This document shows positions 39,729-42,390 of a stretch of 64,000 nucleotides of DNA, in pieces. Position numbers and translations under genes: made by a program. Every line of letters starts with the position of its first letter. Within the stretch, counting starts at the first letter, position 1. Under the pieces are notes generated by a model. That model did not search any database. It was not told the DNA's origin and saw only the letters and a list, made by a program, of their open reading frames with translations. This DNA is from Eledone cirrhosa (taxonomy: Eukaryota), in NCBI GenBank assembly GCA_964016885.1, contig OZ024759.1, positions 37,138,001 to 37,202,000 of the forward strand, written 5' to 3'.

Positions 39729-39730
<2 letters not shown>

Positions 39731-39921
39731 CGAAGGATTTGTGGTAAGGAACTAGATGGACCATAACGCACCAGAGTACTCAATACTTAGGTTAGTAGAG
39801 TGGGTAATAGGAGAAAGTATGACCCCGACGGCAGAGTTCAAGCAGTTTCGACGGTTATTTCTGGACGAAATAGCTGTCGAAACAGCGTGAGCTCTGCCGT
39901 CGGCGTCATAGTTTCTCCTAT
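39729..39921 (-). mobile_element. Fold-back half-hammerhead element, copy A
   Basis: ~55-bp imperfect inverted repeat arms spanning 39807-39921 plus an ~80-bp tail homologous to the reverse complement of 42311-42390; TA-flanked. Confidence 0.85.
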
Positions 39922-40107
39922 ATATATATATATTGTTATACTTGGGGGAGGGTCATATTGTTGTAATAATATTGCCAGAAATAATAACAGAACACATTCA
40001 TTGTTCGGTTGGTTTTCGCTTCTGTATCTTTTATATCTCCATAGTTAATCGTTTATCATTGATTGACCAACGGTTAAAAATACAGATATAAATATACATA
40101 TATAGTC

Positions 40108-40150
40108 TATCAAAGTTTTTTCGTTGCACATTTGCAACATCATCAGTGGT
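40108..40150 (-). other. Degenerate hammerhead-like core
   Basis: Minus strand CUGAUGA t gttgca aatg tgcaac GAAA with a perfect 6-bp stem II; stems I and III not recoverable. Confidence 0.45.
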
Positions 40151-40265
40151 GTTGCCAGAAATAACAGAACACACTCACTGGTTGGTTGGTTTTCGCTTCT
40201 AGAGTAAGAAAGAGAAAGCTTTCTACATTCGTAGTTTGTAGTTAAGATGCAGATTTAGTATAATA

Positions 40266-40450
40266 ATTGTTTCTACTTTTTGGCACAAGGCCAGCAATTA
40301 TCCCAGTACATTACTGGTACTTTATTTTATCGACCCCGTAAGGATGAAAGGCAAAATTAACCTCGGCGGGATTTGAACTCAGTCCGGAAAGGGACGTAAC
40401 TGTGCTGCAAAGCATGGCGTCCGACCCTCTACCGATACTGACAATCCACA
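40266..40450 (-). mobile_element. SINE family 1 copy
   Basis: Highly similar to 8860-9052. Confidence 0.88.
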
Positions 40451-40802
40451 TAATAACATTAAAAAAGAAGTTGATGTTACATAAATATATCTTTCCCACA
40501 CAGCTACTACTTCACATGTTTATATCCTCTAACCCTTACACTTACAGCCATTTGTAACATACACATCTCTCTCTCTCTCTCTTTAACATACACACACATC
40601 TCTCTCTCTTTAACATACACACATATCTCTCTCTCTCTCTTTCTCTCTTTAACATACACACATATCTCTCTCTCTCTCTCTCTTTAACATACACACATAT
40701 CTCTCTCTCTGTAACATACACACAGATCTTGCTCTCTCTCTCTCTCTCTTTAATATACACACATCTCCCTTCTCTCTCTCTATCTCTCTGTAACATACAC
40801 AC

Positions 40803-40859
<57 letters not shown>

Positions 40860-42182
40860 TCACGTACAACTCAGCTCTAGGCTCTCCCCCTTCCTCTCTG
40901 TCTGTCTCTCTCATCCTCTCCCTCTCTCTCTATCTATCTATCTTACCTTTCTATCACCTCCGCTCGCCTATCTATCTCATTATCTACTTCCCATCCTACA
41001 CCCCTAGACCTTCCTAAACTCCTTACTCTCCATTTAACACACACACACCCCATCTCCCTGCCACCCCACCCCTCCTCCTTCCTCCAGTAATTGTTACCTT
41101 CTCTCTCTTCTACTATTGTTAGTCTTCTTTGCCTAACGTTTATCCATTGAGTCTCTTAAATCGAGCTTAAGTGTCTCTGCCTCAGCCAATTTCCAGTCGA
41201 GAAGGAAGCGAATTATTCCAAGCTCCCTTAATCTCAAGTATGTGCCCGAAGAAAATCTCTCTTTTTTGGGATTTTTACTTGAACGAGGCCCCTTAATATT
41301 GAAGAAAAGAATAAAAAGCCAAACAAACACTCAGATCCTGGGGGCTGGACAGTATTATCGGGGTCGTGGGGTGAAGGATCAACAATCGTCGCACTCCTAT
41401 AGCAAACATAACATAATGGAGTTGTCAGCCACCTCATTACCACCGCCTCCCCTTCCTCTCCTACACCCCTTCTACTCCCCTTCCTTTCCTACACCCCTCC
41501 TATACTCCCATTACTTTCTTACTCTCCTCCCCTTCCTCTCCTACACCTCTCCCATACTCCCATTACTTTCCTACTCCCCTTCCTCTCCTACACCCTTCCT
41601 ACTCCCATTACTCTCCTACCCTCATCCTCTTTCCTCTCCTACACCCCTCCTACTCTTCCTTTCCTACACCCCTCCTATACTCCCATTACTTTCCTACTCC
41701 CCTTCCTCTCCTACTCCCCTTCCTCCTATTCCTCATCATACTCCTACTACTTCTCTTACCCCCTTCTCCCTCCTTCCGCCACCTCCTCTAACCACCTTTC
41801 CTCCTCCTACTCCCCCAACTCTCCTTCCTCAGCCTCCCCCAATCCTCCTCCAACACTCCCCTTCCTCTTCCTCCTCCATCACCTTGGTGACGATGGTGGT
41901 GGTAGTAGTAGTGGGGGGGGGGGGACTTGTGGTTGTAGCAGTGTGTGCGATGGTGGTGGTGATTTTGATATTAGTGGTGGTGACAGTGGTGGTGGTGGTG
42001 GTTGCTTTTACACACACGCACATGCATCAAGTACACATACAAGTATGTGTGTGTATATATGTGTGTGTGTGTGTACCCACACATATACTACAGCACGTGA
42101 TGTTTGGGTGTCGCACTCTCCGGGACACGTGTACACTATCCGACATCCCACTCACCTGACACACACACACATATATATATAT

Positions 42183-42387
42183 ATAGGAAAAAGTATGACC
42201 CCGACGGCAGAGCTCAAGCCGTTTCGACGGCTATTTCTGGACGCTATTTGAGTCCAGAAATAGCCGTCGAAACGGCTTGAGCTCTGCCGTCGGGATCATA
42301 CTTTTTCCTATTTCCCACTCTACTACCCTAAGTATTGAGTACTCTAGTGCGTTATGGTCCATCTGGTTCCTTACCTCAATTCCTTTG

Positions 42388-42390
<3 letters not shown>
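42183..42390 (+). mobile_element. Fold-back half-hammerhead element, copy B (best preserved)
   Basis: 60-bp arms 42183-42242 and 42252-42311 (59/60 complementary, 9-nt loop); right arm contains GAAA-CGGC-ttgagctct-GCCG-UC; ~80-bp tail; TA-flanked. Confidence 0.9.

Follow-up and report, generated by a model that had tools for sequence, protein, structure and literature searches.

Penelope-like elements (PLEs) of the Hydra clade, which belong to the C-terminal EN+ PLEs and include Hydra-1_Obim, are recognised by a protein with DKT and RW(K/R) motifs, a CxCX5C linker, CxxC and CxH and no CCHH, by insertion into (TA)n, and by a hammerhead ribozyme in the pLTR (Craig et al. 2021, PMC8557442, section 11). 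PLE insertions have also been described in which a 5'-truncated copy is inverted, the copies lying head to head with a tail on either end and microhomology at the joints (PMC8557442, PMC3846280). For Poseidon of Anolis carolinensis, a PLE of another clade, it was found in vitro that both strands of an AT-rich target are cut and extended and that reverse transcription begins at two internal start sites which bound the tail (Frangieh et al. 2024, PMC11167929); ribozyme cleavage was dispensable in the assays described there, which yielded neither reads nor RNA ends at the cut. Minimal hammerheads of type I, with a U3-A8 core, a long stem II, a short stem I and a palindromic loop III, have been published for the Cercyon PLEs of Schistosoma (Cervera and De la Pena 2014, PMC4209133), the Penelope element of D. 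virilis has an internal TATA-less promoter within its pLTR (PMC2377424), an initiator-like motif has been noted in a rotifer pLTR (PMC3846280), and tandem retrozymes are treated in a preprint (bioRxiv 10.64898/2026.07.22.740005).

The window analysed here, a stretch of 64,000 nucleotides from Eledone cirrhosa, contains two copies, A and B, of an element of about 200 bp, which is a pair of very short 3'-end PLE copies placed head to head within the (TA)n that surrounds both (Table 1). Positions are numbered from the A at 42251 of copy B (+1), which puts the predicted ribozyme cut at +41/+42, the inner end point at +58 and the outer end point at +138. The tailed arm of copy B begins at the A of an initiator-like motif in loop II and runs through the 3' strand of stem II to GAAAC, and from there through stem III, GUC and the 3' strand of stem I into an 80-bp tail; GAAAC, the 5-bp stem III with its 9-nt loop, and GUC occupy 42269-42291. 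The sequence-only reading had described such an arm, the 3' half of a hammerhead lacking the catalytic 5' strand that a type I ribozyme requires, folded back in a near-perfect hairpin, and this description stands: 59 of 60 positions pair between the arms 42183-42242 and 42252-42311, with a single mismatch at 42199/42295, a spacer of 9 nt and a one-sided extension to 42388, and the fold (z = -23) is equalled by 0 of 200 shuffles. Seven nucleotides of the joint insert repeat the neighbouring arm, and one G is absent from the parent. Copy A (39730-39921), on the opposite strand, is 84% identical to copy B and has, as had been claimed, the same structure and the same outer stop, with 7 mismatches between its arms and another, shorter centre.

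Table 1. Positions in the window of the parts of copies A and B and of related fragments.
Feature	Position	Strand	Remark
Copy B, tailed arm	42251..42388	+	intact parent used for comparison: L122
Copy B, tail-less arm, from +2 as far as +58 (inner end point, CC before TAT)	42186..42242	-	
Copy B, joint	42243..42250	+	8-nt insert
Copy B, predicted hammerhead cut (GUC / G, at +41/+42)	42291..42292	+	
Copy B, PLE tail, inner to outer end point, one arm only	42309..42388	+	
Copy A, tailed arm, from +2 to the end of the tail	39730..39863	-	more diverged
Copy A, tail-less arm, from +7	39864..39918	+	
Sister-family stub	37346..37411	+	arm starts at A of conserved TTAGT (37353)
Tail fragment, related subfamily, within (TA)n	55800..55875	-	blastn
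Tail fragment, sister family	57572..57637	-	blastn
Stem III/GUC match with unrelated flanks	19803..19830	+	blastn

The further fragments that had been noticed in the window are recovered by blastn (19803, 37352-37399, 55807-55860 and 57572-57637) as members of sister families or pieces of tail. An Rfam search of the window gave just microsatellite miRNA noise among the matches listed (150 of 685), and the output of a repeat search was dominated by microsatellites. Several other repeats lie in the vicinity. A second hammerhead-bearing family adjoins copy A at 39931-40200, with a minus-strand CTGATGA core near 40146 and a 6-bp stem II; its end recurs as 30-nt stubs at 39593, 39630, 39669 and 39931, and longer copies of it are present in many fetched loci. 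At 58118-58150 a CTGATGA, a short stem II and GAAAC resemble a minimal PLE-type hammerhead of another family, while the CTGATGA within 19709-19830, some 95 nt upstream of the stem III/GUC match whose flanks are unrelated, could be a coincidence or the remains of a sister element. The dispersed SINE-like repeat at 40294-40450, found in many loci, is presumably a cephalopod SINE.

Exact-pattern counts over the genome (3.0 Gb in 1,796 contigs) gave 59,215 arms with the stem III 22-mer, 40,977 tailed arms, 14,610 short fold-backs with a centre of at most 30 nt, and 4,833 arms that retain the upstream TGANRA core strand together with the 5' strand of stem II, the reversed-pattern controls being 0 for every count. 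A parent with a full hammerhead and a CUGANGA core had been expected. The full parent exists, but its core is UUGANAA: of 53 CTGANGA matches 30 were fetched, and none was an intact parent, the matches being due to chance, to joints or to other families. A long-armed match among them led to copies with hundreds of bases upstream of the arm, in which CCCC (stem I), TTGANAA, G, the 5' strand of stem II and a loop II of 31-33 nt lie in that order ahead of the arm, and the arm is continuous with an upstream RT/GIY-YIG ORF. In the parent copy L155 this is a single ORF of 719 aa, RT followed by a C-terminal GIY-YIG (YRDD at 348, VIY..YIG at 591), with RWR at 37, DKT at 117 in place of DKG, a CxCX5C linker, CxxC and CxH; its GIY-YIG lacks the internal Cys pair, and neither CX2-5CxxC nor CCHH is present. 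The Hydra-clade definition of PMC8557442 (section 11) matches these motifs, except that RWR is a conservative change from its RWK. A Pfam search with the ORF gave no match; by eye, the protein resembles that of Hydra-1_Obim. Tandem arrays of the parent have a period of 3,542-3,543 bp, and their units carry the ORF.

By its ORF motifs and its (TA)n target the parent fits the Hydra clade of PLEs, which upholds the Penelope-like origin proposed from the window. A Neptune-clade label was rejected on the absence of CCHH and CX2-5CxxC, and a non-LTR retrozyme on the finding that the stubs have no core while the tandem units contain the ORF. The 3.54-kb unit is longer than the Hydra-clade elements of PMC8557442, which are generally below 3 kb (2,507 bp in Hydra-1_Obim). 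The layout of EN+ PLE insertions, with an inverted truncated copy, a tail at one end and partial tandems, is found here as well; the tail measures 80 bp as against 30-40 bp in the insertions described in PMC8557442 and PMC3846280, and, unlike those, most copies are stubs of about 200 bp, truncated at fixed RNA landmarks.

The parent hammerhead has a U3-A8 core rather than the canonical C3-G8 pair, and with its long loop II it differs from the CUGAAGA ribozyme of Hydra-1_Obim (PMC8557442). The remaining type I features (three stems around the core, G10.1-C11.1, GAAA and an NUH site) are present. In 61 distinct intact copies, where the search patterns themselves dictated the bases at core positions 4-6 and 9, position 7 takes all four bases, A8 and a G at 10.1 are each found in 60, and positions 3 and 8 are U3-A8 in 48 and C3-A8, with the pair broken, in 11. 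The C3-A8 subfamilies (L175, L281, L354, L358, L372 and others) include ORF-bearing copies. The minimum-energy folds of L122 and L155 are three-way hammerheads, in the sister copy L142 stem II alone is folded, and the fold z-scores are weak (-1.85, 0.05 and 0.83). In an alignment of 14 copies 95.5% of cells are paired, and at three stem II pairs both partners differ between rows, two sister-family rows being the source of every such change. Rfam gave no hammerhead match for the parent, nor was a match to its ribozyme found among the matches listed from the supplement of PMC8557442. With the Cercyon ribozymes of PMC4209133 it shares all the traits named at the outset, and it differs from them in its full 5-bp stem III, its predicted monomer fold and a long loop II that contains the stop site described below.

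The reading that we prefer, with a probability of roughly 0.7, is that the element consists of two PLE cDNAs that ran off the 5' end of an RNA in loop II and were joined head to head. Most RNPs would carry a linear RNA that starts inside loop II of the hammerhead, at the initiator-like motif; two cDNAs would be primed on both cut DNA strands, beginning at the two internal start sites of the element, and both would run off the RNA 5' end, after about 58 and 138 nt. Their ends would be joined via microhomology, short templated inserts or A-runs, yielding structures such as copies A and B, and the stub pair would be made afresh with each insertion, both arms coming from one RNP. A minority of RNPs would contain cut RNA or a continuous template.

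The positions at which arms stop were mapped in the first 100 tailed arms of contig C1, unselected for length. Fifty-five end at -4 to +7, in loop II, where the main edge lies at a TTAGT or TCAGT similar to the initiator consensus, TCAKTY. Ten read through; upstream of the main group there are two ends, at -17 and -10, and none at -63 to -18. The others end at +9 to +38 (19), +41 to +43 (8) and +46 to +55 (6). The group at +41 to +43, which coincides with the predicted ribozyme cut, exceeds the flanking rate (binomial p = 4.5e-4). By eye, there is no DPE-like motif at +28 to +32. The motif at +1 is likely to be a transcription start and thus the RNA 5' end, while from the ends and jumps at +41 to +43 we infer self-cleavage at GUC, the +42 ends presumably reflecting real cutting of the RNA.

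Alternatively, the stop in loop II could be a nuclease nick in an AU-rich loop, or a block, imposed by the folded ribozyme or a bound protein, that halts only freshly started RT, with no transcription start at all. This explanation, which we think unlikely, draws on the breadth of the edge, since the ends scatter over -4 to +7, some of them reaching -3 to -5, so that the edge is wider than one base; on the possibility that TTAGT is kept as a tertiary contact of the ribozyme; and on the base at -1. A G, which a reverse-transcribed cap could leave, stands at -1 in 5,696 of 29,422 arms, where parents have T or C, but the partner arm accounts for it in about half of 30 such arms inspected, and G is no commoner than random joints would make it; the three G cases in a follow-up set of joints are a single locus. 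The upstream edge is nevertheless hard, with just 2 of 100 ends between -63 and -5. Moreover, the sister family, with an otherwise different and GC-richer loop, keeps TTAGT at the same distance of 18 nt before GAAAC, and its stubs, including the window copy at 37353, stop there likewise.

Further evidence on the same point comes from junctions of tail to 5' UTR, 71 of 354 of which were taken (70 fetched places). The downstream part is 61-831 nt long in 24 of them: 13 pass directly into the arm again, at -3 to +5 (two within one locus), 5 rejoin at +41/+42, and 6 continue into other sequence. Followed along the course of cDNA synthesis, the rejoinings would mean that the RT left its template at +1 or the cut and resumed further down an RNA; such departures from +1 look like departures from a free end, and so count against a nick or block. 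With 8 of 100 ends and 5 of 24 jumps at the predicted cut, the family also differs from Poseidon. The contigs of X1, a public run that is possibly the assembly's own sample, include two joints of this kind, and in both X1 and X4 the depth steps up 13- to 16-fold at +1. In another 44 junctions the downstream part reaches the end of the fetched stretch (500-1,520 nt). Among these ORF-side copies 41 read through +1 (30 called by script and 11 diverged ones by eye, three being junctions inside a single array), 3 stop at the tail or within it, and 0 of 44 stop at +1, as against 55 of 67 first-pass arms (Fisher p about 2e-19). Three junctions were set aside, L358 and L392, which read through and end in unrelated DNA, and L393, which starts at the cut.

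A block that acts on each pass is therefore unlikely. The same count defeats a prediction of run-off from a linear RNA, namely that full-length copies should also stop at +1; since none does, a second, continuous template must be assumed for the long copies, presumably a circle, as proposed in PMC4209133, or an array-derived multimer. A duplication of +1 to +41, the scar of a homology-free end-to-end jump, was seen in none of the loci examined. As a separate observation, L337-L338 (G000:C1:27,009,500-27,010,300) contains at least two direct 257-bp repeats with the unit -4 to +253, as if from repeated jumps on one short RNA.

The stubs might instead themselves be transcribed from +1 by an internal promoter and be re-copied in trans in the manner of SINEs, a one-arm unit propagating and the palindrome being re-made each time. 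Stubs are several-fold commoner than intact-core arms, the promoter of Penelope is internal (PMC2377424), and in one minor subfamily (the L135/L137 type) no intact parent was noticed, all of which would suit such a course. The six major subfamilies, on the other hand, have intact-core parents, the jump products carry the 5' UTR or ORF start of the autonomous element, and among 120 fold-backs only 2 are scored as tail-less on both arms, each with a deleted remnant of a tail. We regard this alternative as rather improbable overall, and it is compatible with run-off for part of the copies.

The layout of the fold-backs bears on the remaining explanations. From a total of 196, the loci L001-L130 were left out, most of them having been picked on centre or upstream sequence, and the 120 analysed have 102 distinct centres; 114 of them combine one tailed and one tail-less arm. 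The outer ends of the arms are fixed: TAT follows directly on the tail in 155 of 172 arms, and on the end of the tail-less arm in 152 of 176. One-sided tails and TAT-bounded ends fit the two-strand priming from two start sites of the Anolis PLE (PMC11167929). The same layout recurs in 15 of 15 long opposite-strand pairs, hand-picked from the 4,833 intact-core arms, which have one tailed and one tail-less end and whose arms measure 0.1-3.5 kb and are mostly unequal.

The sequence-only reading had proposed that snap-back of the cDNA on stem II builds the second arm, and that the resulting hairpin-capped unit, its centre fixed, then spread as such. That both arms share a subfamily (88 of 93 typeable pairs, 17.7 expected), that one centre recurs (most of 882 matches) and that joints often contain short copies of nearby sequence could be taken in its favour. 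Priming on stem II would, however, keep the whole loop II of the parent in the centre, and the full loop is kept in 0 of the 10 genome-wide matches to such a product, compared with 14,610 short fold-backs, which leaves snap-back unsupported. Even the recurrent centre has the tail on either side, arms also stand head to head with other PLE families (L061, L063, L064, L070, L082, L090), and kilobase, unequal arms have the identical layout. The arms of a copy do share their subfamily, but not as parts of an inherited unit, and spread of this kind is highly improbable; a resemblance to local snap-back is confined to the short stretches of nearby sequence copied at the joint. That the stubs are Hydra-PLE stubs re-made at each insertion, rather than one fixed inherited unit, is held with high confidence.

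Self-priming on an antisense template, a published proposal for palindromes of this layout in rotifer Penelope elements (PMC3846280), would leave unexplained the two fixed outer ends, the one-sided tail, the stops at landmarks of the sense-strand RNA and the heterologous partners, and is if anything less credible still. A palindromic MITE or Helitron end, which a short, high-copy inverted repeat in TA might suggest, can be dismissed in view of the full-hammerhead parent with its RT/GIY-YIG ORF continuous with the arm, the variable centre, and inverted arms that are internal rather than terminal.

Some joints deserve separate mention. In L063 (1-1500, minus strand) and L064 the truncated GIY-YIG ends of two other PLE families lie head to head with the arm, the hammerhead of L063 being canonical (CTGAAGA) and its stem III palindromic. 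Near position 1500 of L061, L070, L082 and L090 the arm of a second family is joined to the arm four times, each time beginning just before a TCAGT that lies about 110 nt ahead of that family's own hammerhead core, a regularity that may be due to the pattern used to select the loci. In L190, L191, L251 and L280, 12-25 nt of T or A stand at the joint beside +1, as if cDNA ends had been tailed without a template. At L160:1179-4862 arms of the stub family enclose a near-perfect inverted pair, 1.3 kb long, of another RT/GIY-YIG element.

In LTR retroelements, minus-strand strong-stop DNA is a short cDNA begun near the RNA 5' end that must jump in order to continue. The stubs resemble it in function only, with no membership implied; they differ in that target DNA would serve as the primer, that two would arise in each insertion, and that failure to jump would lead to integration. 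An extension of the run-off reading, offered tentatively and in our judgement doubtful, starts from the fact that an RNA which begins inside the ribozyme would have only the substrate half at its 5' end. The intact 3' copy would cut itself, complete the half in trans and trim off the cap-bearing 41 nt, and the monomer would circularise; capped linear RNA would give the strong-stop-like stubs, and circles the long and tandem copies. If this were true, the stubs would be fossils that chart, across the whole genome, a replication cycle switched by a ribozyme and parallel to LTR strand transfer but without the LTR machinery.

The kind of element, the layout and the U3-A8 core have already been published; the new part is the map of ends and the jump junctions, which were not found in the literature searched, a coverage outside which most subscription papers lie. 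The two fixed break-points of the stubs likely mark the RNA start and the self-cut site, which would make the copying route of a PLE testable. Tens of thousands of copies yield predictions at the level of single bases. The RNA should start in loop II and have a second end where the ribozyme cuts, RT should begin at two sites 80 nt from each other, and long copies should come from a continuous template. With near-intact ORFs such as that of L155, each of these predictions is open to the published in vitro assay for PLEs.
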